Shown: positions 3,215-19,951, counted from the stretch's first letter. The stretch: DNA of 20,000 nt from an uncultured virus (IMG/VR IMGVR_UViG_3300044706_000059) (IMGVR_UViG_3300044706_000059:56332-76331); one strand, 5' to 3'. Numbers and translations: made by a program. Notes: generated by a model from the sequence alone, not told the origin.

Positions 3215-3236
3215 CACTTTAAAATGTGCTATTTTT
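3209..3236 (+). terminator. Intrinsic terminator-like hairpin
   Basis: AAATAGCAC-N8-GTGCTATTT followed by further Ts. Confidence 0.55.
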
Positions 3237-3267
3237 ATTATATTATTTTGTTAAAGCCTGATTTTGT

Positions 3268-3777
3268 ATGGCATTCAATGGAGCCTTTACAATCACTAGC
3301 GTTATTACGCCGGGGTCATTTATTTTAAATGATACCACTACTGGTTCAGATTCTAATCTGACTGATAGGAAAATTTCTTTATATCAAGCTGATGGAACTT
3401 TATTAGGTGGAGTACCAATTGATTTCCCTTACACTATGGGCAATTCAATTACTTTAAATGTATTGAATATTGATTATTGCCTTCTTATTGCAGTTCAATG
3501 GATAAGTTCATCACCATTACCGCCTCCTTCATCTTACTCAGCATCAGGACTATATAATTTCCTCGGTAACTCTTATTACTTTCTAAACAATTTAATAGGG
3601 GCCATTCAATCCAATCCTAATATTTTAAATGATGTAGGGTTTGATACCAATCTGAGTAAGTTACAAACAGATATAGATTGTAGTAGTCAAGCATCTTCTA
3701 CTGGACAACAGGCAAGTGCGCAAGCAGCCTTATCAAGAATACAATCATTGATTGTTAATCAAAACTATTTTTTCTAA
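3268..3777 (+). CDS. Putative virion structural protein (169 aa)
   Basis: S/T/N-rich, beta-strand-like N-half; TAATG coupling to the next gene; upstream of tail spike. Confidence 0.65.
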   Translation: MAFNGAFTITSVITPGSFILNDTTTGSDSNLTDRKISLYQADGTLLGGVPIDFPYTMGNSITLNVLNIDYCLLIAVQWISSSPLPPPSSYSASGLYNFLGNSYYFLNNLIGAIQSNPNILNDVGFDTNLSKLQTDIDCSSQASSTGQQASAQAALSRIQSLIVNQNYFF

Positions 3778-4349
3778 TGTCAGTAGACGTTGCCTCATAT
3801 ATTCAAATAGCAAAGATTTGCCAATACTTAGCCGCAGATAAAGAATCAACTCAAAATTTATTATTTGGTGGTTATATACGGCCAAATCTTAGTAGGCTAT
3901 TATATATTGTAAGAAATGGGGTTCAATGGTTGTATACTGTTAATCCCGCAGACCCAACTCTTGATGGGAAGGCCATTTATATGTATTCTTTATGTCAGCC
4001 ATTTGTCGGGCAAGCGTTGCAAATAATAGGTAGTGGTGGTAGTGGTACAATAATAAATCCAGCAACGGGTGTAATTTCAACTATTCTTTCTAAGAATATT
4101 GAATTTAAGGTAGGCGACCCAGGGTCGCCCATGAATAATGGAGATACATCTTTAACACTAAATTATTCCTTTATCCTAAATTCAAGTATAATAATATCAG
4201 TAGATGGAGTTGACATGCCTATTGGGGTGACAGATAGAATTTCATTTACTCCTTTTTATAGTTCATTAAGCAGTAGCATATCATTTAACAATCCAGTTTC
4301 TACAGGTCAGTTATATAACATCAAATTCTTACAGTATATAAGTGTATAA
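3777..4349 (+). CDS. Putative virion structural/tail-associated protein (190 aa)
   Basis: Coupled to both neighbours; GSGGSG linker then a small beta-rich domain. Confidence 0.65.
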   Translation: MSVDVASYIQIAKICQYLAADKESTQNLLFGGYIRPNLSRLLYIVRNGVQWLYTVNPADPTLDGKAIYMYSLCQPFVGQALQIIGSGGSGTIINPATGVISTILSKNIEFKVGDPGSPMNNGDTSLTLNYSFILNSSIIISVDGVDMPIGVTDRISFTPFYSSLSSSISFNNPVSTGQLYNIKFLQYISV

Positions 4350-7300
4350 ATGAAACGTTTATTAACCATATTGTTTTTAATAATAAGTATCGTTTGTAAT
4401 GCACAATTACCATTTAATCCGGTTGTAACTCAAACCTCTACAGGTAATTTTAAATGGGGATGGCCCCGAGCAGATTCAGGATTTATAAATGCTGTAAGAG
4501 ATACATTTAATGCCAGGTATTCGGGCTCTCAAATAATTAGAATACAAAACGGCGATACCTCTTTATGGTTTGGAGCAGGTGGGCATTTATGGTTCAAAAA
4601 TTTGCAGGGGAAAGATACCAATTCATTAAGTACAAGAATAAACTTTAAATTAAATACTATAGATACCACTAATAAATGGATTGGGTTGGGTCGGAGAATA
4701 CAGGATACGATGTATAGAATAAATGATTCTACAATAGGCTACACAATTAACCAGGTATTACATACCATCCAGATTTTGGGAAGATCGCAAGGGGGAGGGG
4801 GAGGTTCTGGTACTGTTACCAGCGTGAATATGTCTGTTCCTGCTGCATTAACAGTGAGTGGCGGCCCAATTACTGGAGCAGGTACATTTAATTTATCGGG
4901 AGCCGGCAACTCAGGGCAATATATAAAAGGCAATGGAACATTAGGAACTACTGATACTTCAATGATTACCAATTTCTATTTGAAATCAAGAGGGTTATTA
5001 TCTGGTAATTCGCCTTTATCATACAATAACATAACTGGCATTTTTAGTATTCAAAATGCTAATACTACAGGTCAAAAAGGTGCGGCTACGTTTGTTAACG
5101 CATCCTTTTCGGATAATGGCAGCGGCTTAATTGATCTGGCTGATGTAGTTACAGGTGGCGTTTGTTCTAATTGCAATGTTACATTCGATTCAAAAGGAAG
5201 GGCAACTACCTTCACAGATGGGACGGGAGCAAGTGTAAACGCTAGACGTTCAGTAACCAAAGCTACCCTTGATTCTTTACAGCTTGTTAATGACACTACT
5301 TTAAATGTAGCTACAGGGAGAAAATATGATTATCAATTAGATACTACAGGTCGGCGCGCCTATTATGAAGATAAATATGTTATAGGTAAAAATTATGGTG
5401 AAATAAGAGGTTTGCGACTTCCTGATACTTCTTATGTTTTTAGAGCAAATTCCTCCCAAGTCGTAGGCGATTATGTCTATGACCCAACAGACGTAACTAC
5501 TACGGATGATACTGTGGTTACAATTGTTTCGGGAACTTATAGATACAAGAGATATATCCCTGACGGAGTATATGACCCGCATTGGTGGGGTGCAAAAGCT
5601 AACGGCACCTATGATGATACATGGGCAGTGCAGCAGGCCATAAACGCAGCAAATAAATACACAGGCAACAATGGTACTGTGATACGCTTGACTGGTAATT
5701 ATAAATTTGACCCATCAAACTTTGTATATAATACAGGCAGGGGAATGGTATTTGAAATAACAGGTAATGTACAGTTATTGAACACTTGGCGTATAACAAG
5801 AGGGGTGAGTATAATTGGTAAGGGTGGGGCAACAGCGGAAGCATCATTTGCATGGTCGAACATAGCATCGATTCAATATACCGTGGTAAATACAGGAGCT
5901 CCCAAAGCTGCTGTTGAGTTGACATATGGCGGCAATACTTTGAGAAACCTAACCATTGGTAGTTATGGAGGGATAGGAGTTAAATTAAATGGAACATTTT
6001 TTATACCAGCAGCATTAGCATTGTTGGATAATGTTAGTGCTAGTGTAGGCTCGTATACTGGCAAGCAAACAGGGTTGCTGGTATCGGACTGGTTTTGGTT
6101 TAAATTGGATAACTGTTCGTTTAGCGTGGATGGCACATCTGCGGCAGGCAGTTCGTCTATAAAGCTGGAAGGTAAAACATATTTCCCCGACATCAACTTG
6201 TGCTATCTGGGCGAATTTAATAATTGCACTGCCCAGGGTAGACCAATTAGAATACAAGCCGGTGACACAGCAGACGCAAGTCTAAATGTAGGCATTGTAA
6301 ATATAACTTTTAGAAACTTAACGATAGAAAATGTAGCTCCTGATACTGCCGCCATCATGTTAAACAGTACACGTATTCCCATAGATAATATAGTATTTGA
6401 GCGTCCAGTAATGGTAGATACCTATAACATGGGGTTCTTCATTTATAACGCGGGTAATAATACCACAGGAGTAAAATTACATGATGGTGATTTGTTAAGT
6501 GGACAATTAAAGAAAATATTCGGGGGTGCCGCTATAGTTAATAAGTATTTCACAAGCACTGCTAAACCCATCAATAATTTTGTCTTTAACCCAAATTCAA
6601 GGCAATTGTACGATGATTTTGGTATTAATGGTTCTACAGATAATATAAACATGAATAGGGGATGGAAACCACCATTGGAATTACAGTTGTACGATGGCGG
6701 CCAAATTGCACGAAATGCTGCACGACTAAAAGATTCAGTAATAACTTCGGCCTCGGTTGTAACTGAACCCTTTACTGGATATAATGGAGATACGGTAGCA
6801 ATCAAAGTAACCCCCGATGGAACTAATAGCAACCCTACTATCCAAATAAAACAATATGAGCAAGTTTGGCATACTGGCGATCAAATATATTTCGGTGCAT
6901 GGGTTAAAAGCGATATGATGGACAGCATCTTTTCAACGGCTTTAAAGGCTCAAATAGATGGTGGATATCTTTGGCAGAATACATCTTCGTCCACACTTGT
7001 TTCGGACATAACTTTTATTTCACAACCTAATAATGGATGGAGGTTTTTAATATGCTCAGGGTTAATTGATGCGTCGGCATCAGACCATTCTTCACATAAA
7101 ATGTATTTATACATTAATAGCAACGATACCAATAGAACACACCCATACTATGTTTCTCACGCTTTTGCTTACAAAATAGACAGTGCAACCGCCATAAACC
7201 AAAATGAATTTCTTTCGTGGGTTAAGATGAATGCCGGTGGTCTTTACGCTGTTCCTTCAAAGAGTTATGGGATAAGAGATGATTTGCCATTCTATGTTGG

Positions 7301-9544: not shown

Positions 9545-9744
9545 TGTTTTTATTTAATTGTTGCTATGGAGTATTGATTTTCATAAACATTGAGAATTTC
9601 AAAGGATGGGCCTTGTTCTCAATTGGCTTGCTGTATGGAGTTGCGCGCTTATTTTTCTATGTCATAAAACAGAACCAGGAAAGACGAATGCGTGAATTGG
9701 ACATTATGGAACGGCAAAGAAAAGTTGCGGAAACCTCAAAATAA
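9526..9744 (+). CDS. Putative holin (72 aa, 2 TM, charged C-tail)
   Basis: METKILMFLF... from ATG 9526 within track ORF 9400-9744; two hydrophobic segments and a charged tail. Confidence 0.55.
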   Translation: METKILMFLFNCCYGVLIFINIENFKGWALFSIGLLYGVARLFFYVIKQNQERRMRELDIMERQRKVAETSK

Positions 9745-9755
9745 AATTATATTTG
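9725..9755 (+). promoter_or_regulatory. Bacteroidota sigma-A-type promoter
   Basis: TTG (9725-27), 20 nt spacer, TATATTTG (9748-55). Confidence 0.65.
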
Positions 9756-9759
9756 TAGG

Positions 9760-9850
9760 GCTTAACCAAAATTGGAAGATATGGCGCTCAAAGGTGCAAG
9801 ACGGGAAAATCCTAGTTTTGGTTAAGCACACTTTTGAGCGCCATTCTTAT
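9760..9850 (+). promoter_or_regulatory. Structured leader with two interleaved 16-bp helices upstream of spanin-like and endolysin genes
   Basis: 9760-75 pairs with 9812-27; 9781-96 pairs with 9829-44; G-U pairs favour the + strand. Confidence 0.6.
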
Positions 9851-9864
9851 TTAAAATTTGTAGC

Positions 9865-10632
9865 GTGAAATTACCTTACTGGTTAAAAATTCTAGCAATC
9901 ATACTGATTATATTTCTAGTGTATGCATTAATACGCGGCTGTAAAAATGCAAAGCATAAGTATGATAATTATGATAACATTTCAGCCCAACTGACAAAGG
10001 TATTACAAGAAAAAAAGGATGATAGTTTAGCTGCTCTGATGAAAGAGCAATTGCAACAAGACACTATTGCCTTCATAAATGGTCAATTAGCATTATTCCA
10101 GAATAAGAACTTGGTTACTACAGATTCATTAAGGGCAGCAAATAATCGTATAACAACCCTCCTAAATAAACCCATTTCTATTCCCCCCTTATCCGACAGC
10201 GGAAGAACAACAGTTAATAATGAGTTTATTGCCGATTGCTCAGACTGCTTCAAAGAACTATCCAACGGGCAACAATTAGTTACACGATATAAATCAGAAA
10301 AGGATAGCATCCAGTCATTATTGACTTATAAAATATCAATAATGGATGATGAAATAAACGACCTTAATAAAACAAATAATTTTCTCCATCAAAAGGTAAA
10401 TGATGCAGTTAGCCTAGCACAACGCAGTCAAAAACAATCACAAATAAGAAGAACATTATATTTTAGTTTGGCAGCATTAAGTATCAAGGGCCCCCTTCCT
10501 AGTGGAGTGGGAGCCGGTTTTATTTATATGGATAAACATATGCGTTTATTTGGAGCTAACTACTTTATAAGTAATTATGGGGCCATTTATCAGGCTCAAT
10601 TGTCTATGCCATTATCTTTAAAAGGGCGCTAA
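9865..10632 (+). CDS. Spanin-like lysis protein (255 aa)
   Basis: N-terminal TM followed by LIRGC, long coiled coil, C-terminal amphipathic beta-strands; adjacent to endolysin. Confidence 0.6.
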   Translation: MKLPYWLKILAIILIIFLVYALIRGCKNAKHKYDNYDNISAQLTKVLQEKKDDSLAALMKEQLQQDTIAFINGQLALFQNKNLVTTDSLRAANNRITTLLNKPISIPPLSDSGRTTVNNEFIADCSDCFKELSNGQQLVTRYKSEKDSIQSLLTYKISIMDDEINDLNKTNNFLHQKVNDAVSLAQRSQKQSQIRRTLYFSLAALSIKGPLPSGVGAGFIYMDKHMRLFGANYFISNYGAIYQAQLSMPLSLKGR

Positions 10633-10791
10633 ATGATTTGGTTACATTTTATACCAATTACAGTTTTAACGATCTTTTATTTGTTATTGAAAAGATTGCC
10701 AGAACGAATATCTAATGATCTGCAAGCAGATGCGAATGTAAATGAAGCCTATCGCATTATAAACAATAAAATTAAAATTAAGGATAGATGA
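10633..10791 (+). CDS. Small single-TM protein (52 aa, MIWLHFIPITVLTIFYLLLKR...), not in ORF track
   Basis: Starts directly after the previous stop and ends with an ATGA overlap on the endolysin start. Confidence 0.65.
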   Translation: MIWLHFIPITVLTIFYLLLKRLPERISNDLQADANVNEAYRIINNKIKIKDR

Positions 10792-11333
10792 CAGACTATC
10801 AACACTTATGGGATACAATGATAGTAGACCCTGATAAATTAGGCATTATAAGTGCTATTGTCAGCAAAATACAAACCCGAAAGAATTTATACGATACTGT
10901 TGAAGCTGCTATCCGCGTACCTTGGTATGTGACGGCTGTTATTCATTATAGAGAATCCGGGCTAAGTATTCTACGTCATCTGCATAATGGTGACCCATTA
11001 ACAGGAAAGACTATCCACGTTCCAGCCGGCAGGCCAATGCATGGAGAGCCACCGTTTTCTTGGCAGGCGAGTGCTATGGATGCATTACAGCTAAAAGGCT
11101 TCGATAAAGTAACAGATTGGTCTTTGCCTCATATGCTAGAATTGATAGAAGGATATAATGGTTTTGGCTATCAAAAACGGGGTATCCCATCTCCGTATTT
11201 ATGGTCATATTCTGATAATTACCACAGAGGTAAGTACGTGGCTGATGGTAAGTTTGACCCCAATGCAATAGATCAACAATGTGGCGCTGCCGTACTTCTC
11301 AAATCCTTAATATCGGATAGTATTCATAATTAA
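10788..11333 (+). CDS. Endolysin, lysozyme-family (COG5526-like)
   Basis: Motifs VPWYVTAVIHYRES, HLHNGDPL, VPAGRP, EGYNGFGY, SPYLWS, GKYVADGKFDP, QCGAA. Confidence 0.85.
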   Translation: MTDYQHLWDTMIVDPDKLGIISAIVSKIQTRKNLYDTVEAAIRVPWYVTAVIHYRESGLSILRHLHNGDPLTGKTIHVPAGRPMHGEPPFSWQASAMDALQLKGFDKVTDWSLPHMLELIEGYNGFGYQKRGIPSPYLWSYSDNYHRGKYVADGKFDPNAIDQQCGAAVLLKSLISDSIHN

Positions 11334-11379
11334 TAATCAAAACCCCTCTAGGATTCGTGGGCTTTAAAAGAGTAAGTTT

Positions 11380-11405
11380 AACCGTGGCATTAGTCACGGT
11401 TTTTT
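11380..11405 (+). terminator. Intrinsic terminator of late/lysis operon
   Basis: AACCGTGGC-ATTA-GTCACGGTT plus T run. Confidence 0.75.
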
Positions 11406-11423
11406 GCATTAAAAAAGCCCGGT

Positions 11424-11431
11424 TAAGACTA
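11424..11431 (+). repeat. Target-site duplication TAAGACTA, left copy
   Basis: Identical to 14639-14646 and abuts the left TIR. Confidence 0.9.
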
Positions 11432-11456
11432 GGTAATAACTACCAATTAGGGACAA
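11432..11456 (+). repeat. Left terminal inverted repeat GGTAATAACTACCAATTAGGGACAA
   Basis: 20/25 identical to the reverse complement of 14614-14638. Confidence 0.88.
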
Positions 11457-11463
11457 GGGCTTT

Positions 11464-11500
11464 AAAAGAAATAGCCTCCAAATTGGAGGCTATTTCTTTT
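11464..11500. terminator. Bidirectional terminator just inside the left end
   Basis: Perfect 17-bp inverted repeat AAAAGAAATAGCCTCCA-AAT-TGGAGGCTATTTCTTTT. Confidence 0.8.
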
Positions 11501-11621
11501 TCTTTTTAGCTTTCTTTTTGGGGGGAGTATTAGCCGCTATCTTCATGGCCTCCCCGAATGTCATATCAAGTTTGACGGTAATATTGGGAACTTGTTTCTT
11601 ACCTTTCTTGGTGGACTTCAT
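11490..11621 (-). CDS. Small Lys-rich protein (43 aa, MKSTKKGKKQVPNITVKLDMTFGEAMKIAANTPPKKKAKKKKK), not in ORF track
   Basis: ATG 9 bp after the transposase stop; TAG lies in the terminator arm. Confidence 0.65.
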   Translation of the reverse strand: MKSTKKGKKQVPNITVKLDMTFGEAMKIAANTPPKKKAKKKKK

Positions 11622-11630
11622 ACCCTAAAT

Positions 11631-12788
11631 CTACGCATATTTCCATTCAAAGCCTCCTGTAGAATGTCTTTGGCCTAGCAATACCAATCTAATTTTAGCT
11701 GGATCAAGATTGTTAATTTGTGCAGCTTCTTTAATTGACGGATATTGAGCTATTACTTCTCCATTCTTAATTTGTAACACAGCTATTTTTCTGCCATTTC
11801 CACCCTCAATTTTTATTTGGGGAGTAGGAATAGTAATTTCTATTTTAGGAGCGGGGCTTAGGATTAAATCTTTATACTTTAATCTCCCAGGAGCCTTTAT
11901 TAGTGCTAGTATAAACCGGTCTGCATCTTTCATTTTTCTCAGATTGTATCTGAAAGCCGTTTCTTCACAATACCGGTTTAAATGCTTTATGGTCACTTTG
12001 TGATAAGTGCCTATAATAGTTCTTTTTAAGTGACTGAATGCTCCTTCTATAGTATTTGTATAGATTACCTGATCCCGTACGTATTCGTTAATAGTATGAT
12101 TCACAGTTTCATGGGCTGCATAGTCGTTTTTTAATCCTACATAATTAGCGGAGGTATCTGTCATTAATACTGCATCTTTATCTACATTTTCTTGGATTAC
12201 TTTATGAACGATTGGTACGCCGCCTGTACTTTCTCCGCTGGAAATCAATTTTAATTCGCCACCTCTTTCCACGAGCCCCATTACCATTACTTTAGTATCA
12301 GCTACTGCATTTGCTTCTCTTAAAATCTTCCTTTTATGTTTGTTCATATTACTCACCTTACCACCTATATACACTTCATCCACTTCTACTATGTTGTCTA
12401 GCTTCACAGGTTCTTTGGGACGCATTATCTCCCTGATTCTGTGCAACATAAACCAGCTACATTTTTGGGAAATTCCTATATGTTTGGCTAATTGATAAGA
12501 TGAAATCCCTTTTTTATTAGCAGTAGCTAAATACATGGCAATGAACCATTTATTTAAAGGAATATTACTCGCCTCGAAGATTGTACCCACTTTAACGGAG
12601 AACTTTTTATAACATTCTTTATTGCCGCATTTGTACCGGGCTCCTTTTTCTATAGAATAACATTTATTATGATTACAGTAAGGACAAATAACTATCCCAT
12701 TGGGCCATCTTTGCTTTGCAAGATATTCACGGCAGGCTTGCTCGTCCGAGAGCTTTTGAATCAATTGCTGAAGGTTCTTAAACTCCAT
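11631..12788 (-). CDS. IS1595-family (ISXO2-like) DDE transposase with C-terminal NUMOD1-like domain
   Basis: Zn ribbon CPYC...CGNKEC, HTH ISSYQLAKHIGISQKCSWFMLHR, catalytic VEVDEVYIGG, LMTD, TNTIEGAFSHLKR; tail YPSIKEAA...STGGFEWKY. Confidence 0.95.
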   Translation of the reverse strand: MEFKNLQQLIQKLSDEQACREYLAKQRWPNGIVICPYCNHNKCYSIEKGARYKCGNKECYKKFSVKVGTIFEASNIPLNKWFIAMYLATANKKGISSYQLAKHIGISQKCSWFMLHRIREIMRPKEPVKLDNIVEVDEVYIGGKVSNMNKHKRKILREANAVADTKVMVMGLVERGGELKLISSGESTGGVPIVHKVIQENVDKDAVLMTDTSANYVGLKNDYAAHETVNHTINEYVRDQVIYTNTIEGAFSHLKRTIIGTYHKVTIKHLNRYCEETAFRYNLRKMKDADRFILALIKAPGRLKYKDLILSPAPKIEITIPTPQIKIEGGNGRKIAVLQIKNGEVIAQYPSIKEAAQINNLDPAKIRLVLLGQRHSTGGFEWKYA

Positions 12789-12794
12789 TTTGGC

Positions 12795-12825
12795 TTGATT
12801 TTAAAGAAAATCTTACCTACCTTTG
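12795..12825 (+). promoter_or_regulatory. Antisense-oriented promoter between transposase start and tRNA, overlapping an inverted repeat (12813-12835)
   Basis: TTG (12795-97), 20 nt, TACCTTTG (12818-25); TTACCTAC/GTAGGTAA inverted repeat. Confidence 0.6.
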
Positions 12826-12839
12826 GAGTAGGTAAAAGG

Positions 12840-12914
12840 TAGTCCTGGTGGGGCTCGGACCCACAACCTTCCGATTAGTAATCGGAAACTCTATCCCAAT
12901 TGAGCTACAGGACT
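12840..12914 (-). tRNA. tRNA(-like) gene, anticodon ACU (nominally Ser) on a short-arm Arg-like body
   Basis: AGTCCTG TA GCTC AATTGGGATA GAGT T TCCGA TTACTAA TCGGA AGGTT GTGGG TCCGAGC CCCAC CAGGACT A, followed by CCT; all four stems pair. Confidence 0.85.
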
Positions 12915-12974
12915 ATATATTACTTTTAGACTTGCGGATCTACCTTATGCTTTGTTAATCCGCTAGAATTTACT

Positions 12975-13020
12975 AAAAGACCACTTGTTTAAGTTTGGCG
13001 ACTGGGCAAGTGGTTTTTCT
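12975..13020 (+). ncRNA. Hairpin with UUGGCG loop and U tail; probable 3' part of a small antisense RNA
   Basis: ACCACTTGTTT/GGGCAAGTGGT stem needs G-U pairs so folds better on +; apical AGT-TTGGCG-ACT. Confidence 0.55.
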
Positions 13021-13021
13021 T

Positions 13022-13435
13022 TTATCTTGTAATCAATTCATACTGAATTTCTTTCCCCTCCTTTTCTATTCTTTTATATTTCTCCCCTTTATCTGCTGAT
13101 AAAGTTGCAGATACACTACTCCAAACCGACTTCATTTGAAGTTCAGGCTGAAATTCAAGGATGGCCCGCACAATCTCTTTACCGGTTAATGGCATCATGC
13201 TGGTTCGTAGAATGAAAGTTATTTTATTATTCCATGTCCAATTGGGGTCGTAATTTTCCCGAGAATGGCTATTATAAGGCTGTATCGACAGCCTCTTAAG
13301 ATTAGCAATTTTTTCATCTAACCTCTTTATTGCATAATTCAACTTATCTATCTGTTGTTGATATTCCTTCTTACTGGCTTCGTGCGCCTTTAATAATATA
13401 TCTATATCTTCTTTCTCTAAATTAGGCGAATACAT
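13022..13435 (-). CDS. Putative DNA-binding regulator: coiled coil plus winged-HTH-like domain (137 aa)
   Basis: Heptad N-terminus; WNNKITFILR..PLTGKEIVRAILE...VWSSVSATLS..YKRIE..IQYEL fits a wHTH pattern. Confidence 0.7.
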   Translation of the reverse strand: MYSPNLEKEDIDILLKAHEASKKEYQQQIDKLNYAIKRLDEKIANLKRLSIQPYNSHSRENYDPNWTWNNKITFILRTSMMPLTGKEIVRAILEFQPELQMKSVWSSVSATLSADKGEKYKRIEKEGKEIQYELITR

Positions 13436-13456
13436 TTGGCGACTGATTTAATACTG

Positions 13457-13488
13457 CAAACCTAGATACAAGCCTAGACATGACCAAA
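13457..13488 (-). promoter_or_regulatory. Promoter for regulator-tRNA-transposase unit
   Basis: Minus strand TTTG (13488-85), 20 nt, TAGGTTTG (13464-57). Confidence 0.65.
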
Positions 13489-13659
13489 TTTATTTCTAGG
13501 ATTGTTTTTAAAGTTGCTAGAAAATCTAGTAAAGGTGTTTTTTACACTAAGTAAAAAGAGTTTTAATTTCGCCAAATTCTTATTAAAACGGAATCTTTCG
13601 TTTGCATATATCGGTGCTTATTGTAATATTTGGCCCGACATAAAATAATTGCGTTAGCT

Positions 13660-13810
13660 CTCCCAGCTTTCCGAAACGACCAATTTTTACAAAGTATACG
13701 GGGGAACAGCGAAGCAGCACGCCTATGCGTGGGCTTTCGTCTGCTCGTATACATGGCGCTTGGTCGTGCCTGGAAAGCGGTGGATTGTTAAAGTCCCACG
13801 CTTTTTTTAT
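13660..13810 (+). ncRNA. GC-rich structured leader/attenuator ahead of cargo genes
   Basis: Nested stems GCTTTCC/GGAAAGC, ACGACCAA/TTGGTCGT, GTATACG/CGTATAC, CACGC/GCGTG; overlapping terminator AAAGCGGTGG...CCACGC plus T7. Confidence 0.65.
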
Positions 13811-13858
13811 TTATATCTCGCCTTCAAGGGACTGCAAGGCACCTAATACTTTTCTGCC

Positions 13859-14077
13859 ATGTCCCTGGCTAATATTACCGGTAAGAAAATAATAACATCC
13901 CTCCTTGGGCATTTCCTCAGTGAATTTAAATGGTATCGAAAATGGATTGGAGGCACCTGGTACAAGGTTCACGACCCTTATACCGGAACAGGATGGGGAG
14001 GATTTACAGAATGGACGCAAACAATACCCACCAGCGATACCGCCGAAATCCAGCTAACAGAATCATGGACTAATTAG
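13859..14077 (+). CDS. Transposon passenger, small Trp/Gly-rich protein (72 aa)
   Basis: First ORF after the leader; 5 bp gap to the next ORF. Confidence 0.6.
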   Translation: MSLANITGKKIITSLLGHFLSEFKWYRKWIGGTWYKVHDPYTGTGWGGFTEWTQTIPTSDTAEIQLTESWTN

Positions 14078-14082
14078 AATTT

Positions 14083-14484
14083 ATGACCGAGAATACTGTA
14101 TTATTCCATAACTCGATTATATTCGGCTTATTTATAGTTTGCCTTATTTGGGGATCAATTACAATTAGTTTTTATACTGCTAAGGAACTGGTGATTTATC
14201 ATAGATTAAAAAAGGGAGGCAAAGCATCTATTTTAGAGCAAGCAACATATTTTTTTATTGCAATAGTTGGATGCTCAATTATTGCCGGTTTATGTGGCGA
14301 AACTCCGAACATTCATCATTCCCCCACTTCCCTTACAATTGTAGCATTTATATCTCTATTCATTCCATCATCACTAGGAATTATTCTTGGATTAAATACA
14401 GAATCTAAAATGTCAGACAAAGAAAGAGCCATTAAAAGAATAAAAATGAAAGATGCTGAAAATGGAGACGAAGGACGGTATTAA
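14083..14484 (+). CDS. Transposon passenger, 3-TM membrane protein (133 aa)
   Basis: Three hydrophobic segments and a charged C-tail. Confidence 0.7.
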   Translation: MTENTVLFHNSIIFGLFIVCLIWGSITISFYTAKELVIYHRLKKGGKASILEQATYFFIAIVGCSIIAGLCGETPNIHHSPTSLTIVAFISLFIPSSLGIILGLNTESKMSDKERAIKRIKMKDAENGDEGRY

Positions 14485-14570
14485 GTTATAGAAGGGGGGC
14501 TTCAATTCAATGACATTGTAATAAACATTATTATTCTCCGTATGATTGATTACAAATTGATATGTAAATT

Positions 14571-14603
14571 AAAAAGGTAGACTAAAAATAGTCTACCTTT
14601 TTT
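14571..14603. terminator. Bidirectional terminator just inside the right end
   Basis: AAAAAGGTAGACTA-AAAA-TAGTCTACCTTTTT. Confidence 0.8.
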
Positions 14604-14613
14604 GTTAAGCCTT

Positions 14614-14638
14614 TTGTCCCATAAAGGTTGTTATTACC
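14614..14638 (-). repeat. Right terminal inverted repeat
   Basis: Reverse complement is GGTAATAACAACCTTTATGGGACAA. Confidence 0.88.
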
Positions 14639-14646
14639 TAAGACTA
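14639..14646 (+). repeat. Target-site duplication TAAGACTA, right copy
   Basis: Identical to 11424-11431. Confidence 0.9.
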
Positions 14647-14818
14647 ACCAGGCTTTGATTGATCGTACCCTTTAAAACAAATAGTTCTTAAAAAGTTTAA
14701 AAATTGGAAGCCCAACACAATCAAACTAACTAAAACTTAACTAACATGAGAAAAAATCCAGAAGATGAAATCTAGGCATATATAAAGAATACATCCCGCA
14801 GGGCTTCCAAAGGAGTTG

Positions 14819-15178
14819 CTATTGTAATGCTTTATCTTGTATGAATAGTTCCCAATGTTTCAGGTCTGCATCTGCATCTACATCCATTTCGTGACGAATT
14901 GCTATAGATAATGCATCCCACTGAGATAGGTTGTAATTCTTGACGAAATCAGCCAAACTATAAGTACATTCACCCTCAATTACAGAGTTAGTTGTAATAT
15001 CCACATCATCAATGCTGCCTATCGAAGATAATAATTCTAAATAATCAACAGGTTTAAGTATAAGGTGAAAATTTTTTGACTGATTGTTATGGCTGCGGAA
15101 ATAAGATATAGACATCAGTTCTTCCGTCATACTCCAATTAGTAACGGTAATCTGGTTTCTTAATTGTTGAGTGGTCAT
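14819..15178 (-). CDS. Hypothetical phage protein (119 aa)
   Basis: ORF with AT-rich initiation region in the minus-strand operon. Confidence 0.75.
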   Translation of the reverse strand: MTTQQLRNQITVTNWSMTEELMSISYFRSHNNQSKNFHLILKPVDYLELLSSIGSIDDVDITTNSVIEGECTYSLADFVKNYNLSQWDALSIAIRHEMDVDADADLKHWELFIQDKALQ

Positions 15179-15244
15179 TGGTTTAAGATTTAAAAGGTTT
15201 TAAAATAAGAAATCTCATGTAATGTGTGCGGGTTAAAAACGGGC

Positions 15245-16120
15245 TTATTCATTAAATATGGAACGAATTATTTCACCTCCATAGGCATTTTGAGTTAATT
15301 TAACAAAGGTTTCTACCGTCATTGAACCATCAAGAGTAATACCATTTTCTTTTAACCAATGTTTTTTACCAGATTCACAAGAACCTGTGAGAATTGTATG
15401 CCATTTGTAAAAAAGATCATTGGAATATTGATTTCCCGGTTTGAATTGGCTTTTAAATTCTAAAATGGCCTTCTCCTTATCAAGTGATGAGTAATACTTT
15501 ATATCTACGGCTTCATTAGCTTCCTTAATAGTTTCACCATGCGCAAATAAATTGCCTTTTTTAACTACATACATCGCAGAGGTTGAAAAATCGGCCACAT
15601 TAATAATTGAGACTAGTGCAACATTGCCTTTTATACTATCAAAAGTGCATGGTATTTTGTCGATATAGTAAACCTTTTTGACACCAATAGAAGAAAATAT
15701 AATGCCGTAGCTGTCGCCGTCGCCGTAGCCATCGCCGTAGCCGTAGCTGTTGCCGTAGCCGTTGCCGTAGCCGTTGCCGTTGCCGTCGCCGTTGCCGTCG
15801 CCGTTGCCGTCGCTGTTGCCGTAGCCGTTGCCGTTGCCGTCGCCGTTGCCGTCGCCGTCGCCGTTGCCGTCGCCGTAGCCATCACCGTAGCCGTCGCCGT
15901 TGCCGTCGCCGTCGCCGTAGCCGTAGCCGTAGCCATCACCGTAGCCGTCGCCGTTGCCGTCGCCGTCGCCGTCGCCGTTGCCGTAGCTGTTGCCGTAGCC
16001 GTTGCCGTAGCCGTAGCCGTAGCCGTAGCCGTTGCCGTCGCCGTTGCCGTCGCCGTCGCCGTTGCCGTAGCCATCGCCGTAGCCGTCTATTTTCAAGAAT
16101 TGTTTAATTATCTTTTCCAT
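15245..16120 (-). CDS. Phage protein with long G-[D/N/Y] dipeptide repeat and globular C-terminal domain (291 aa)
   Basis: GDGYGNG repeats then YIDKIP...FAHGETIKEA...WHTILTGSCESG; overlaps upstream gene by 13 bp. Confidence 0.85.
   Translation of the reverse strand: MEKIIKQFLKIDGYGDGYGNGDGDGNGDGNGYGYGYGYGNGYGNSYGNGDGDGDGNGDGYGDGYGYGYGDGDGNGDGYGDGYGDGNGDGDGNGDGNGNGYGNSDGNGDGNGDGNGNGYGNGYGNSYGYGDGYGDGDSYGIIFSSIGVKKVYYIDKIPCTFDSIKGNVALVSIINVADFSTSAMYVVKKGNLFAHGETIKEANEAVDIKYYSSLDKEKAILEFKSQFKPGNQYSNDLFYKWHTILTGSCESGKKHWLKENGITLDGSMTVETFVKLTQNAYGGEIIRSIFNE
15704..16087. repeat. Coding hexanucleotide tandem repeat GCCGT[A/C/T], about 64 units
   Basis: Directly visible; encodes the Gly-X repeat. 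Confidence 0.95.
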
Positions 16121-16410
16121 GCGCTTACTGAATTAATTGTTTTTAGGGCAGCTTCTGAAATTGGATGATATTCAATAACATTTAAGATAGTAGATTTATC
16201 GGCATCCCCTAATTGAGCCGAAAATTTACAGTTTGATGGCTTACTAACTCCATCAGTAGCGATTGTTACCACATCTAATGCCCCTGCCCAATAATATAAG
16301 CGCCTGGCATTAGTAATTACAAGAGTTGAACCTTTTTCTTCAATGATTTTACCGATGAAAACGCCAGCACGATCTGCGCGGATAATAGAGAATCCTGTTG
16401 TTTGTTTCAT
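16108..16410 (-). CDS. Conserved phage protein (DUF6948-like), typical partner of Gly-repeat gene
   Basis: IIRADRAGVFIG...NARRLYYWAGA...ATDGV motif; family assigned from memory. Confidence 0.7.
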   Translation of the reverse strand: MKQTTGFSIIRADRAGVFIGKIIEEKGSTLVITNARRLYYWAGALDVVTIATDGVSKPSNCKFSAQLGDADKSTILNVIEYHPISEAALKTINSVSAWKR

Positions 16411-16440
16411 GTTGATTTTATTTTTTGAGTTTTAGAATGT

Positions 16441-16722
16441 TTATTCAGGTGAATAATAAGAGCAAACTATATCATCCGTTTGCTTATCTACAACCAATAC
16501 TAGATTGCTTTCCCGGCATCTTACCCAATATAGCTTATGGTCGTATTTATGTGCTTTTAAATCGGACATTTTAGGGCATTCGAGGTAATGTTTTCGAGTG
16601 CAGGAACCAAAGAGCAAAGCCAATGTTATAATCAAGACAAGCACAAAAAAGAATCCGTGTATGTTTTGCCGTCTGGAATAGTGTGGGCCTTCGTAATAGG
16701 CTTTAGGGGTTTGCTTTTTCAT
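16441..16722 (-). CDS. Hypothetical single-TM/lipoprotein-like protein (93 aa)
   Basis: Hydrophobic segment ending FGSC; ATGA overlap with upstream gene. Confidence 0.7.
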   Translation of the reverse strand: MKKQTPKAYYEGPHYSRRQNIHGFFFVLVLIITLALLFGSCTRKHYLECPKMSDLKAHKYDHKLYWVRCRESNLVLVVDKQTDDIVCSYYSPE

Positions 16723-16904
16723 TTTCTCTTTCTTTTGCGTTTGGTTAATTTATATTCTCGCATTAAGGAGTGAATAAAGTCGTTTTGGGTTACTAAGTTT
16801 TCGTGTGGCATTCGTTTATTAGTACCGGCCCAATTGTGTTCCTGTCTATCCCAGCGCCTTATTTCAGAGATAAACGTTTGCCACTCGTTCATATTTCGTT
16901 TCAT
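16719..16904 (-). CDS. Small hypothetical protein (61 aa)
   Basis: 4-bp overlaps with both neighbours. Confidence 0.7.
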   Translation of the reverse strand: MKRNMNEWQTFISEIRRWDRQEHNWAGTNKRMPHENLVTQNDFIHSLMREYKLTKRKRKRK

Positions 16905-17209
16905 AAATTAATTTTACACCATTTGATAATTAACTCGGAATCCTTTTTATTGAGATAAAGCACATAATGTAAATACCTGCCTTCTTTATTGCTTCTCCAT
17001 TTGGCTTCGACCAGGTTAATTAATTGACCATAAGAGTGGAGAAGTTTGTAAAAAATAGTTTCATTGTCACATTGAATAATAGCAGTATCATTTACATAGC
17101 TAATTGTAGTTTCATCTGCTATTTTTACGGGAGTAGGTTGGGCATTTGCTTTTAACCAGAACGCGCCCACCAACGAAAGAACCAAAAAGATAATGATTGC
17201 TTTTTTCAT
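16901..17209 (-). CDS. Secreted hypothetical protein (102 aa)
   Basis: Signal peptide MKKAIIIFLVLSLVGAFWLKANA-Q. Confidence 0.75.
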   Translation of the reverse strand: MKKAIIIFLVLSLVGAFWLKANAQPTPVKIADETTISYVNDTAIIQCDNETIFYKLLHSYGQLINLVEAKWRSNKEGRYLHYVLYLNKKDSELIIKWCKINL

Positions 17210-17214
17210 GTTTG

Positions 17215-17448
17215 TTAATAAAAGGTTATAAATTGTTTTAATTGCTGAATTACAAGTGATTTATAAGCTATTATTAAGCAGATAATACCGGTTAACATAA
17301 CTATCGCTGATATTGCCGCCCACCAACTAAAGTAAATGGGCAAGGTCTATGGAACATTGCGTGTAATAAGCCATATACAACCAACATACGCCCATATAAT
17401 AAAACTGGCACTGGAAAGCGAGATTAATAACCAAGATATACGTTTCAT
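17215..17448 (-). pseudogene. 2-TM membrane protein gene interrupted by one in-frame TAG (17347-17349)
   Basis: MKRISWLLISLSSASFIIWAYVGCIWLITRNVP*TLPIYFSWWAAISAIVMLTGIICLIIAYKSLVIQQLKQFITFY; fills the gap between neighbours. Confidence 0.6.
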
Positions 17449-17460
17449 CGGTAATAAGTT

Positions 17461-17634
17461 TTAAAAGGTTAAATAAAAAGACTTTGAATTAATAAGAACC
17501 AATTGCCCACCTACTACAGCCCACACATTAAAGGTGGAGTGTGAATAACGACTACTAATAGTACCATCTAGGTTGAATGTTATTCTGTACTGTAGTTGGT
17601 CTTTTAGGGTTGATATGATAGTTGCGTGGTTCAT
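17461..17634 (-). CDS. Small hypothetical protein (57 aa, MNHATIISTLKDQ...), not in ORF track
   Basis: Hand-translated; tightly packed in operon. Confidence 0.55.
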   Translation of the reverse strand: MNHATIISTLKDQLQYRITFNLDGTISSRYSHSTFNVWAVVGGQLVLINSKSFYLTF

Positions 17635-17640
17635 AGCCCT

Positions 17641-17757
17641 TTAGTTATAGTATTTAATAGCTTCATAAATAGTTTCAAATGCTTCAAAGTCAGGGATATA
17701 AAGGGCCATACCACCGGAATAGCCTAATAAGGTAGCTTGATCAATTATTTCAGGCAT
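17641..17757 (-). CDS. Small hypothetical protein (38 aa, MPEIIDQATLLGYSGG...), not in ORF track
   Basis: Hand-translated; tightly packed in operon. Confidence 0.55.
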   Translation of the reverse strand: MPEIIDQATLLGYSGGMALYIPDFEAFETIYEAIKYYN

Positions 17758-17771
17758 AATTTAGAGGTTTA

Positions 17772-18014
17772 TTAACGTGAAAACGAAATACCTAATGCTA
17801 ATAATGCTTTCTCTCCGCGAAGTATTGCACAAGATAAATGAGTACCACTAGTATAATCGCATTCAACCAATTCCTTTAAAGCTAAAAGAGCTTCTTTGTA
17901 TTGTCCTTTTTGCCATTCAGCGCCATCTTTAAAAGCTACTTCTACTATTCGTTCACAGTTTACACCAGAGTTTCGAAGTGCATAATCAGCGGCATATTGA
18001 AAAATATCTGACAT
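17772..18014 (-). CDS. Hypothetical phage protein (80 aa)
   Basis: AFKDGAEWQK resembles a common small phage protein motif. Confidence 0.7.
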   Translation of the reverse strand: MSDIFQYAADYALRNSGVNCERIVEVAFKDGAEWQKGQYKEALLALKELVECDYTSGTHLSCAILRGEKALLALGISFSR

Positions 18015-18022
18015 ATAATATA

Positions 18023-18316
18023 TTAATAAAACTTTGAGATAATCTCGTTAGTCAAATCACTATCGTATTCTGGCTCATAAGGGTCACTAATTGCGTAAAG
18101 AGTAAGACGGCACATTAACGCATTTAATTTCGGGTCATTTAATTCCGCAGCACGCGAAGCCACTTCCTCCAACATGCCCGCAAATATCTGTAAGGGCCTT
18201 TTCAAAATGCCCGTACCGGGATTGTTAAGGATTTCTTGTAATAATCCTGGAGTATGGCAACGCCATTCAAGATTTCTACCAGGTACAAGAATTTCTTTAT
18301 TTTTTATAGTTGGCAT
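18023..18316 (-). CDS. Hypothetical phage protein (97 aa)
   Basis: Operon spacing, helical protein. Confidence 0.75.
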   Translation of the reverse strand: MPTIKNKEILVPGRNLEWRCHTPGLLQEILNNPGTGILKRPLQIFAGMLEEVASRAAELNDPKLNALMCRLTLYAISDPYEPEYDSDLTNEIISKFY

Positions 18317-18325
18317 AAAACAAGT

Positions 18326-18562
18326 TTAAGATTCTAAATATAATTCACCATCCACAGGGCTAAACTTATCAGAAGTAGCCGTTACGGTACTCTCTTTTAG
18401 TTGAACTGTTAAAATAGCTACTATTGCAGGGTTACTAGTACCATTAGGCCCCAATTCGATAGCCCTTAAAGTACCAATACGGCCATCGTCATATTGTAGT
18501 TTATCTCCGACTCTTATCCGTATGCCGACAGTGCGTTGTTTAGCAATATATTCGCGTAACAT
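18326..18562 (-). CDS. Small beta-rich (SH3/KOW-like) hypothetical protein (78 aa)
   Basis: IRVGDKL...GRIGTL pattern. Confidence 0.65.
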   Translation of the reverse strand: MLREYIAKQRTVGIRIRVGDKLQYDDGRIGTLRAIELGPNGTSNPAIVAILTVQLKESTVTATSDKFSPVDGELYLES

Positions 18563-18582
18563 AATATTGGTATTAAATGATT

Positions 18583-18612
18583 GAAAAATAGCCAGTTATT
18601 ACCGATACTGGC
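18583..18612 (-). terminator. Terminator-like hairpin within early operon
   Basis: Minus strand GCCAGT-N10-ACTGGC followed by TATTTTT. Confidence 0.55.
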
Positions 18613-18630
18613 AAACGGCCTGATGATCGC

Positions 18631-18648
18631 CTTGGTCGTGCCTGGAAA
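18631..18648. repeat. 18-bp exact copy of transposon leader segment 13759-13776 (CTTGGTCGTGCCTGGAAA)
   Basis: Direct comparison; both copies intergenic. Confidence 0.9.
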
Positions 18649-18656
18649 AAACTAGT

Positions 18657-18866
18657 TCAAAACCCAAATAATATTTGAAAAAAGTTAAGTTTTTTTGCTA
18701 TCAATAAGCCCGTATAAACATTAGCCGGAGTTCCAGAAAGGGAAGGATAGTTAGTTATTGCATATCCTTCGGGCAGACTTTCAATGGCATACAGCGTGTT
18801 TTCACAAAAACTTTTATAGCTTTCTGCTTCAATGATAAGAACAACATATTTAGGTTTAGTTTTCAT
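18657..18866 (-). CDS. Hypothetical phage protein (69 aa)
   Basis: Operon spacing. Confidence 0.65.
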   Translation of the reverse strand: MKTKPKYVVLIIEAESYKSFCENTLYAIESLPEGYAITNYPSLSGTPANVYTGLLIAKKLNFFQILFGF

Positions 18867-18888
18867 TAAGTCTAGTTTATGTTATTAG

Positions 18889-19143
18889 TTAGTTTCCGGC
18901 AATTTCATTCCATACTACTTCCAATTCAGCTATTTCTAAGGCAGATAATTCATATTCCTCATCGGCAGGCGCATTGTAAATGCACACACATTCGTTGTCT
19001 TGTCTTTCTTTAAAGGCTGCAAAACTGGCCTCATCAACGGAATCAAAATAACCAATCAATCGCTCAGACAATACATTGTCATTTAAATCTAAAATCGCAC
19101 AAGTAGCCTTAATTTGTTGATTATCAGAAATGAACTTTGACAT
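18889..19143 (-). CDS. Acidic hypothetical phage protein (84 aa)
   Basis: Operon spacing; D/E-rich. Confidence 0.7.
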   Translation of the reverse strand: MSKFISDNQQIKATCAILDLNDNVLSERLIGYFDSVDEASFAAFKERQDNECVCIYNAPADEEYELSALEIAELEVVWNEIAGN

Positions 19144-19171
19144 AAATAGTTAGTATTAAAGGGGTGAATAA

Positions 19172-19438
19172 TTAGTTGATATAATGATATCTAGCCGCAT
19201 GCTTGAGCAGGCATACTTGTTCCGCTAATGTTTTATAGCATTTACCAAATTCATCTTTGCGTGTCCAACCAACGCGATTGGCGGCCATATCCCATTTGGC
19301 TAAGGGTAAGGTATTAAGGTGGTCGTCGCCGTTGTTAAGAGCTTGTTTAACTTGCTCTTTTGTGAACGGTATATAATTTACGACTTCTGGTTTAGCCTTG
19401 AATAACGTTTCATATTTATCAAAGTGTGAGTTAGACAT
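19172..19438 (-). CDS. Hypothetical phage protein (88 aa)
   Basis: DDHLNTLPLAKWD...LAEQVCLLKHAAR; operon spacing. Confidence 0.75.
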   Translation of the reverse strand: MSNSHFDKYETLFKAKPEVVNYIPFTKEQVKQALNNGDDHLNTLPLAKWDMAANRVGWTRKDEFGKCYKTLAEQVCLLKHAARYHYIN

Positions 19439-19471
19439 ATAGTTATAGTTTTAAAGGTTAATTACTTAATA

Positions 19472-19576
19472 TTAACGAGCGTAAGAAAGGTTATTAAAGC
19501 CAGTAAAGTAAACCAGAGATACGATAGCTATTATGATTGCTATTCCTAAGACAGTGGGGGTGATAAGTTTTTTCAT
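19472..19576 (-). CDS. Small single-TM peptide (34 aa, MKKLITPTVLGIAIIIAIVSLVYFTGFNNLSYAR), not in ORF track
   Basis: First ORF after the promoter at 19614-19646. Confidence 0.55.
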   Translation of the reverse strand: MKKLITPTVLGIAIIIAIVSLVYFTGFNNLSYAR

Positions 19577-19613
19577 AATTTCCAAGTATTAGTTTGTGTG
19601 TTGTTTGACAAGT

Positions 19614-19646
19614 CAAAGATAATATCTTTTATCGTCGCAATCCAAA
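19614..19646 (-). promoter_or_regulatory. Consensus-like early promoter
   Basis: Minus strand TTTG (19646-43), 21 nt, TATCTTTG (19621-14). Confidence 0.7.
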
Positions 19647-19675
19647 TTTATTTTGAAGTATTTTTAAAATATTTT

Positions 19676-19951
19676 TTACTGTTGATAATTAATAACATAG
19701 CAGGTGCCGAAAAAGTCTATAATATCATATCCTGGATGAGCTGTCTTTAATCGGGTGCCTGCATTAGTGGTGTAACCAAAGATGTGACGATCATATTTAA
19801 CATATGCGTATGCTGGGGACGACACGCCGAATTTCTTACCATATCTCCTAAAAAATACACTAACTGGTATTGCATCTGCGGGCAATACCTCGCGCGATTC
19901 ATATTTAGTGCCAGATATTCTCATACGTGCGAAGATACTATCATTTATCAT
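19676..19951 (-). CDS. Hypothetical phage protein (about 91 aa)
   Basis: Track ORF starts at TTG 19960; ATG 19951 is preferred. Confidence 0.65.
   Translation of the reverse strand: MINDSIFARMRISGTKYESREVLPADAIPVSVFFRRYGKKFGVSSPAYAYVKYDRHIFGYTTNAGTRLKTAHPGYDIIDFFGTCYVINYQQ

Follow-up and report, generated by a model that had tools for sequence, protein, structure and literature searches.

IS1595-family insertion sequences (IS) that carry passenger genes, termed transporter IS (tIS), have already been described (PMC3129680, citing Siguier et al. 2009). We analyzed a 20,000-nucleotide stretch of DNA from an uncultured virus (here, the window), which is the last 20 kb of the 76,331-bp IMG/VR virus record IMGVR_UViG_3300044706_000059 (estimated completeness, 62%), and found that positions 11432 to 14638 hold an intact element of 3,207 bp comparable to these systems. 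In common with tIS as described there, the element has a zinc-ribbon DDE transposase, terminal inverted repeats, an 8-bp target-site duplication (TSD), and passengers without a role in transposition. It differs from tIS as described there in several respects: its transposase has a C-terminal NUMOD-like extension and is followed by a conserved gene for a Lys-rich microprotein; it carries a structured RNA leader in addition to a winged-helix gene and a tRNA-shaped gene; each end has a terminator on its inner side; of the 13 elements resolved here, 4 occupy the centers of hairpins; and this copy resides in a phage. We are highly confident in reading the locus as an intact IS1595 transporter IS that recently inserted into a phage terminator and that comprises a transposition core, an accessory unit, and a divergent cassette headed by an RNA leader. 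Elements of this kind are already known; what awaits explanation in this one is its RNA leader and its tRNA-shaped gene. The features, by window position, are the following.

11424..11431, no strand: copy 1 of the TSD, TAAGACTA, present as a single copy at the empty sites of L018 and X3/X4
11432..11460, no strand: terminal inverted repeat beside the 3' end of the transposase unit (20/25 against the other end)
11464..11500, no strand: bidirectional terminator-like hairpin inside the left end (18-nt arms, 100% complementary)
11490..11621, minus strand: gene for the Lys-rich microprotein, 43 aa, starting 9 nt after the transposase stop
11631..12788, minus strand: IS1595-family transposase, 385 aa, with Zn-ribbon, DDE domain, and C-terminal NUMOD-like extension (profile matches)
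12811..12837, minus strand: terminator-like hairpin between the tRNA-shaped gene and the transposase start (terminator scan)
12838..12914, minus strand: tRNA-shaped gene, anticodon ACU, short variable arm, T-loop TCCGAGC (ARAGORN; Rfam tRNA model, 60.4 bits)
13022..13435, minus strand: gene for a putative coiled-coil and winged-helix (HARE-HTH-like) protein, 137 aa (relatives, AF2, Foldseek)
13602..13639, plus strand: promoter-like stretch, conserved with element L004 inside a 92% identical block (13601-13811)
13640..13810, plus strand: rod-shaped structured leader RNA of ~170 nt with a U-run at its end (minimum free energy fold, covariation)
13820..13841, plus strand: small hairpin whose loop, GGGACU, could pair with the leader bulge AGUCCC (possible pseudoknot)
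13859..14077, plus strand: 72-aa open reading frame (ORF), the first gene behind the leader, starting 48 nt after the RNA end
14083..14484, plus strand: gene for a 133-aa membrane protein with three hydrophobic segments (Kyte-Doolittle scan)
14571..14602, no strand: bidirectional terminator-like hairpin inside the right end (14-nt arms, 100% complementary)
14610..14638, no strand: terminal inverted repeat at the cargo end (inverted-repeat search and end comparison)
14639..14646, no strand: copy 2 of the TSD, TAAGACTA, single copy at the empty sites

The element inserted recently into a phage terminator hairpin, and the insertion is real rather than a chance arrangement of repeats. The phage contig L018 (64.5 kb, 92% complete, 95 to 99% identical to the window) aligns to positions 9738 to 11431 and 14639 to 19943. 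Because these two aligned blocks overlap by 8 bases, L018 carries one TAAGACTA with nothing between the blocks. Independently of L018, soil metagenome contigs of runs X3 (80,117 nt) and X4 connect position 11423 to 14639: their junction omits 3,215 bases, and 8 letters are common at the joint. Unoccupied sites in related phages, which the earlier note on this DNA had proposed looking for, therefore exist and point to simple transposition. The near-identical empty-site phage has no copy of the element anywhere, and the 76-kb record holds one. On the minus strand, the empty site reads as a 9-bp stem, a 4-nt loop, and then U6, the shape of an intrinsic terminator; it lies between two convergent genes, and the duplicated 8 bp form the center, or loop, of this hairpin. 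Runs X7 and X8 contained only short pieces identical to the element, without context. At the boundaries, the two ends agree at 20 of 25 positions base by base (19 of 24 by the scoring of our script), and, for the end at 11432..11460, 24 nt are the same in both ends of L022, an element from a metagenome. Both end hairpins have A-runs before and T-runs after them, and the left one is 95% conserved in the sister element L004. Among 26 ORFs of at least 150 aa drawn from the remainder of the record, PHROGs recognized the large terminase (4.5e-73) and three structural proteins of the virion, along with a UvsX-like recombinase, RusA, exonucleases, NinG, and RNase H. By this gene content the record is a phage. 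Its host probably belongs to the Chitinophagales. A search of GenBank phages at the DNA level in distant mode gave three tRNA-like matches and nothing else, and a literature search of limited scope on IS1595 with phages and terminators found nothing relevant among the papers listed.

The transposase matched the IS1595 family profile NF033547 over positions 1 to 215 of 215 (1.5e-52; 178.6 bits, cut-off 75), PF12762 over positions 1 to 153 of 153 (1.6e-33), and the IS1595 zinc ribbon PF12760 (9.2e-09; 35.6 bits, cut-off 25.4); the match to PF22083 (2.2e-05, 24.4 bits) was under the cut-off of 27. Residues 326 to 385 matched phrog_20162 at 8e-9, and the C-terminal extension that they roughly delimit resembles NUMOD-like domains of homing endonucleases. 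As in IS1595 elements, a DDE domain and an N-terminal zinc ribbon are combined with inverted ends and an 8-bp duplication. As in a transporter IS, 11432-14638 carries passengers (the tRNA gene and ORFs of 137, 72, and 133 aa), and the empty sites lack this segment as a whole. The earlier note had described a complete IS1595 cargo transposon in a phage, with 25-bp inverted repeats, an 8-bp duplication, a bidirectional terminator inside each end, and two divergent units that include a tRNA(ACU), a 72-aa gene, and a three-transmembrane gene. This description was borne out throughout, including every gene listed.

The closest relative, L004, sits in another, distantly related phage (between the two phages, a 1,409-aa protein has 52% identity across 323 residues). 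The L004 element is 3,471 bp long, with TSD GAAAATTC and identical 24-nt ends, and its transposase is 78% identical to that of the window in protein and 75% in DNA. The two elements have in common the Lys-rich ORF, the left terminator, and the leader; L004 has no tRNA, and all its other passenger genes differ. The block from 13601 to 13811, 92% identical in L004, is more highly conserved than the transposase DNA. More distant transposases (42 to 63% identical) were found in Ferruginibacter, in metagenome-assembled genomes of Chitinophaga and other Bacteroidota, and in metagenome contigs, and relatives at E<=1e-40 occur in 77 of 401 sampled Chitinophagales genomes. A script requiring an exact 8-bp duplication and matching ends resolved 10 elements; inspection by eye resolved L010 and L014, and with L115, a later addition, the set came to 13. 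These range from 2,098 to 3,998 bp, so passenger DNA is the rule among them; two further resolved elements, L160 and L166, measure 2,256 and 1,853 bp. Pfam searches of the cargo of L004, L010, L014, and L022 yielded a PEGA domain and weak matches only. PADLOC found no defense family in the cargo of the window element, L004, L010, or L014, and two matches at chance level in that of L022.

A basic ORF of ~40 to 55 aa with the same core pattern as the Lys-rich microprotein begins only a few bases from the transposase stop at 11 of 18 loci, including every locus with a full-length match to the 385-aa transposase. Examples are L004:6168-6299, L010:5653-5778, L014:5656-5787, and L022:3913-4059. L160 also has one (L160:1347-1469); in L115, the Lys-rich ORF is at the far end of the element. 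The peptide had no family in Pfam or PHROGs and no named cluster in the ESM Atlas. The Lys-rich ORF is a conserved gene.

Insertion into a hairpin is not confined to the window. Flanks complementary at no fewer than 8 of 9 positions across the duplicated 8 bp were found for 4 of the 13 elements (window, L010, L014, and L022), compared with 2.2% of random sites in the same loci. In three of the four, the stem is uninterrupted (8, 9, and 13 bp), whereas stems of at least 8 bp occur at 0.8% in the background, and all four encode the long transposase with the C-terminal extension. The pairing flanks are 11406-11431 with 14639-14664 in the window, L010:3333-3349 with 7063-7079, L014:3784-3806 with 6511-6533, and, in L022, those around 124-4121. 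These data suggest that long-transposase elements tend toward the centers of hairpins or palindromes, often terminators. A link between the C-terminal extension and this targeting is speculation on our part.

The leftward unit runs in the order 137-aa gene, hairpins, tRNA-shaped gene, transposase, and Lys-rich ORF. A word-based protein search with the 137-aa protein returned only itself; phmmer collected 115 representative relatives, and 8 of 52 aligned relatives matched PF05066 (HARE-HTH; best, 2e-05). An AF2 model made using the alignment (pLDDT, 92.1) has a long helix at residues 8 to 50, followed by three helices and two strands, and its best Foldseek matches in the PDB were all winged-helix DNA-binding domains (Fur, PerR, forkhead, and MarR). 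A single-sequence AF2 model gave no usable fold match, and the profile of the family against PDB sequences found coiled-coil noise only. The designation "wHTH-like" in the earlier note is reasonable, not proven, because the matches come from relatives and from a model at Foldseek E values of 0.02 to 0.1. The same unit was found in L160, an IS in a Chitinophagales genome (TSD TTAATTAT; ends, 18/24). There, one strand encodes in order a 138-aa coiled-coil/winged-helix protein (1.7e-7 against the profile of the 137-aa family), a tRNA-shaped gene, a 46-aa ORF, a 310-aa transposase 46% identical to that of the window, and a 40-aa Lys-rich ORF. L160 thus amounts to the window's leftward unit with its order kept and almost no other cargo. 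In L174, a strong member of the 137-aa family (7.9e-35) lies beside the transposase, without a tRNA. From L160 and L174, therefore, the winged-helix and tRNA-shaped genes are recurrent accessories of some IS1595 elements rather than one-off cargo, though both are absent from most relatives. The synteny of winged-helix gene, tRNA, and transposase that the earlier note singled out for checking accordingly recurs once, in L160, and is otherwise broken by the lack of the tRNA in most relatives.

The tRNA-shaped gene is the sole tRNA in the 76-kb record. The nearest loci in 201 Chitinophagales genomes (best 20) were 18 tRNA-Arg(ACG) genes, one Arg(CCG), and one Trp, at 75 to 84% identity. Relative to seven aligned host tRNAs, the anticodon loop reads TTACTAA against CTACGGA, the D-loop has one extra G, and the T-loop has a C for a T (TTCGA in all seven); the variable region is 5 nt long, as in host tRNA-Arg genes. 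A long variable arm is an identity feature of tRNA-Ser, and the identity elements of tRNA-Arg are C35 and either U36 or G36. Because the variable arm is short, the "Ser" label given by ARAGORN is a codon-table reading only, and tRNA-Ser was rejected as an assignment. The anticodon ACT has C35 and T36, and by these identity rules charging of the Arg-type body with arginine would be more likely. The tRNA-shaped gene of L160 was called Arg(CCT), with a G before the anticodon. Exact anticodon-arm and D-arm patterns of the window tRNA were not found in viral contigs. As a separate observation, the Chitinophagales locus L100 (1507-2389) gave four successive tRNA-Arg(ACG) calls, three of them short 69-nt forms.

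The earlier note had called the start of the rightward unit an attenuator-like leader. The leader proved to be a structured RNA that recurs in or beside IS1595 elements. Its predicted fold is an unbranched rod (-61.3 kcal/mol; z, -3.76; none of 200 shuffles equal) with paired 5' and 3' ends, closed by a U-run. Model R1, built on the pair of phage copies, was too narrow, detecting 6 instances in 3 of 151 Chitinophagaceae genomes, and was replaced by R2. With R2, 27 of 151 Chitinophagales genomes gave 39 instances altogether and 23 of 151 Bacteroidota genomes gave matches, with up to 4 leader copies per genome. The 8 sequences from the R1 round have compensatory changes in 32 of 50 pairs, and 36 distinct leader sequences have them in 48 of 50. 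Paired cells amount to 91.8%, against 33 to 43% with the partners slid, and 0 of 500 shuffles attained the observed values; many G-U pairs suit the folded strand as given. Together, these comparisons argue that the leader is a real, covarying structured RNA family of ~170 nt. At E<=1, neither the window's leader nor 6 bacterial copies matched any Rfam 15 family, and the leader is therefore not detectably 6S RNA or sRNA-Xcc1 (RF02221). A literature search on RNA motifs, covariation, and riboswitches in Chitinophaga or Chitinophagaceae found none; this search was limited, and the leader may be published.

Leaders also occur in viral contigs. An exact 24-nt leader pattern was found there in the L004 contig only, and a search with a gapped motif yielded 25 viral loci. 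Apart from L113, which is the L004 contig itself, 24 loci remained, and in 11 of these R2 confirmed 13 matches. Inside or near IS1595 elements, the leader lies within the 3,880-bp IS L115 (TSD AAAACAAA; transposase 37% identical to that of the window) and within the 1,853-bp L166, and 1.7 kb from a 44% identical transposase in L135. IS1595 transposases were also found within the 3-kb loci of the bacterial leaders L071, L073, L083, and L061. The leader was present in 4 of 30 transposase loci, L166 among them, and it adjoins IS1595 transposases in L158 and L175. R2 detected no leader in 34 other loci (31 fetched by transposase similarity and 3 by a neighboring phage gene), and most leaders are without a transposase in the DNA examined, so the association with IS1595 is an enrichment, not a rule. 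The 80-kb X3 contig, which carries the empty site, has its own leader copy at 47264-47453, aligned to window positions 13618 to 13807, 41 kb away and in other surroundings, so that use of the leader by these phages extends beyond this transposon.

Further observations concern the leader's surroundings. Two viral contigs carry tandem leader copies (L122:1752-1911 and 2317-2484; L128:416-585 and 981-1147), each with a 70- to 88-aa ORF ~46 to 49 nt later, and one recurrent family of 71- to 74-aa proteins lies behind the leader in L124, L125, L127, and L133. In L114, L116, L118, L119, L121, L130, and L134, the gapped motif has a constant 91-nt span and is not recognized by R2; the RNA in these seven viral loci may be more diverged or of another kind. 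The first six bacterial leader copies (L054, L056, L057, and L058 around them) adjoin genes of integrative/conjugative type, namely, ArdC-like, N6 methylase, relaxase with NikA, D5-type primase, HTH_17, and RadC. A single-strand DNA promoter of conjugative elements, suggested by the neighboring ArdC, relaxase, and RadC genes, was dropped as a candidate, since most leader copies directly precede ORFs.

This position before ORFs was counted over 49 leader instances, comprising 36 from the bacterial/phage alignment (a partial L050 match was left out) and 13 viral ones. A same-strand ATG ORF of at least 45 aa begins within 130 nt in 34 of them (median, +46); its start falls at +39 to +56 in 20 of the 34, with the window's 72-aa ORF at +48, and a hydrophobic segment lies at the ORF start in 16. 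The genes behind leaders encode Por_Secre_tail, PKD, BNR, DUF4352, Fib_succ_major, Laminin_G_3, and collagen-like proteins, and also a TonB plug protein, an ECF sigma factor, a beta-lactamase, RadC, and small phage proteins. Toward its 3' end, the leader has a conserved bulge that complements the loop of a small hairpin 14 to 35 nt downstream. At least 5 different bulge sequences are each met by their own complement, and viral copies have the same layout, making a bulge-loop pseudoknot possible. A small alternative terminator overlapping the rod was considered and set aside (not conserved, by eye). Upstream, the stretch at 13602..13639 resembles, inexactly, the Bacteroidetes -33/-7 consensus. 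The Bacteroidetes -7 motif was present within -70 to +12 in 12 of 37 leaders only; the window lacks an exact copy. The 72-aa and 133-aa proteins had no family in Pfam, PHROGs, PADLOC, or NCBIfam and no relatives by word-based search; that they act at the membrane in conflicts between phage and host or between phages is a guess.

The rightward cassette can be compared with two further kinds of system. Like riboswitches and other cis-acting 5' leaders, the leader has a covarying fold, a fixed distance to start codons, a U-run after the closing helix, and a possible pseudoknot near the start site. Unlike riboswitches, it precedes genes without a common pathway (exported or surface proteins, small phage proteins, an ECF sigma factor, and a beta-lactamase). 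Phage morons are independent promoter-gene-terminator units between phage genes. The cassette is similarly self-contained, with a promoter-like stretch and a terminator, lies between two phage operons, and is absent from the near-identical phage. In contrast to morons, it has a long conserved leader RNA and came inside a transposon whose ends are defined and whose target site is duplicated. Elsewhere in the window, a 291-aa ORF at 15245-16120 on the minus strand has an N-terminal half made of a long Gly-Asp/Asn-Tyr repeat; its sole Pfam match, TrAA12-like, is repeat driven.

Several observations weigh against parts of the transporter IS reading. The tRNA is missing from most relatives: ARAGORN found none in L004, 15 other IS loci, and 7 leader/IS loci, and called one in 2 of 30 Chitinophagales transposase loci, leaving 28 of 30 without; Rfam at E<=1 found no tRNA in 9 loci. 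The window's 137-aa protein has no Pfam match of its own, its winged-helix call draws on relatives and on Foldseek matches with probabilities of 0.99 to 1.0 but the E values given above, and its pairwise similarity to the L160 138-aa protein is weak (BLASTP E, 0.036), the family profile being the link. For the leader, the covariation counts rest on alignments fitted to the structure of the model, strict bulge-loop pairing (at least 5 Watson-Crick bases) was found in 11 of 36 instances only, and 15 of the 49 instances have no ATG ORF of at least 45 aa within 130 nt. Hairpin targeting was seen at 4 of 13 sites only.

As a rival explanation, the leader could be a free-standing, trans-acting small RNA (sRNA), 6S-like or sRNA-Xcc1-like, with its own promoter and terminator. 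The unbranched rod with paired ends and U-run closure, the promoter-like stretch conserved alongside it, and the 15 instances without a nearby ORF all suit such an RNA, as does the fact that the 6S models RF00013 and RF01685 found no 6S RNA in 5 leader-carrying Chitinophagales genomes. Those models had no match in the window either, and 6S RNA itself was rejected on this absence together with the copy number and the fixed ORF spacing. The 34 of 49 instances with a same-strand ORF, 20 of them in the narrow start interval, the multiple copies per genome, and the conserved downstream hairpin complementary to the bulge all speak against an RNA that acts in trans. In the 341-nt region from 13560 to 13900, moreover, four chance-level matches to unrelated families were listed at E<=10, none of them RF02221 or 6S. 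We regard a free sRNA as improbable. A closer call is whether the tRNA-shaped gene is an ordinary phage-type passenger supplying a decoder for phage codon usage, whether as Ser by its label or equally as Arg for AGA. It scores 60.4 bits on the Rfam tRNA model, its body is nearest to host tRNA-Arg, A37 follows U36 in the loop, and among Arg codons the phage ORFs use AGA most often (15.2 per 1,000), with 11 occurrences in the transposase. However, by standard rules ACU reads AGU (Ser), and the short variable arm excludes a normal tRNA-Ser; the deviant T-loop and D-loop, the different anticodon of the sole syntenic relative L160, the lack of this tRNA in the near-identical phage G003, and the absence of either exact pattern from the viral contigs searched also tell against it. 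An ordinary decoder is possible, if on the unlikely side.

The earlier note had gone further, seeing in this regulatory density a phage satellite or immunity module, or a phage-adapted subclass of IS1595. Under the first proposal, the block would be a satellite or a superinfection module that merely uses an IS1595 transposase, with the divergent units forming a repressor-based switch. The layout invites this view: the divergent units, each with a terminator of its own, set a winged-helix protein opposite a small membrane protein, the block sits in a phage, and a membrane protein expressed by the phage could exclude other phages. Yet Pfam, PHROGs, PADLOC, and NCBIfam revealed no integrase, primase/replicase, packaging, capsid-redirecting, or second (Cro-like) repressor gene, and no PADLOC family was matched. 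The same architecture occurs in bacterial chromosomes (L160, L010, and L014), L004 retains the ends, transposase, microprotein, and leader with every other gene exchanged, and the empty sites speak for simple transposition. We consider the module highly improbable and did not retain it. The phage-adapted subclass was likewise not supported, given that bacterial chromosomes too contain the transposase clade, the winged-helix/tRNA arrangement, and the leader. Partial support was obtained for a distinct IS1595 sublineage equipped with RNAs.

For the transporter IS reading, we propose the following mechanism. The DDE transposase inserted the element into the center of the intergenic terminator hairpin between two convergent phage operons, duplicating 8 bp. 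The two ends, the transposase, and the conserved Lys-rich microprotein constitute the transposition core, and the coiled-coil/winged-helix protein and tRNA-shaped gene upstream of the transposase form an accessory unit typical of the lineage. The divergent passenger cassette consists of the promoter-like stretch, the ~170-nt leader with its small hairpin, and two small genes, one for a membrane protein. The end-proximal terminators may insulate the element and replace the split terminator for both phage operons. The leader is predicted to act in cis on the ORF ~46 nt behind it, via termination at the U-run, a bulge-loop pseudoknot near the start codon, or both. The winged-helix protein may regulate the element, and the tRNA-shaped RNA could decode AGN codons as an Arg-type tRNA or could signal processing at the junction of the regulator transcript with that of the transposase.

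More tentatively, this IS1595 sublineage could be a self-equipped gene-delivery vehicle with two RNA devices: a tRNA-shaped processing or control signal, not a decoder, set between the winged-helix regulator and the transposase, and a riboswitch-like or factor-binding leader, with a possible pseudoknot, that gives a captured ORF signal-dependent expression, present in ~15% of sampled Bacteroidota genomes and in many phages, with preferential landing in terminator hairpins. We consider this broader proposal doubtful; if it is true, transposons and phages spread ready-made regulatory RNA together with exported-protein cargo. At the level of the locus itself, an intact, freshly moved phage IS with a matched empty site is direct evidence of phages as vehicles for transposons, and it indicates that transposons can hand phages new self-contained genes. 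Its wider value lies in a widespread covarying leader outside Rfam 15 that travels with IS1595 elements and phages, a tRNA-shaped gene with nonstandard features, a conserved microprotein, and a tendency to insert into terminator hairpins. These parts would inform how IS control themselves and their cargo.

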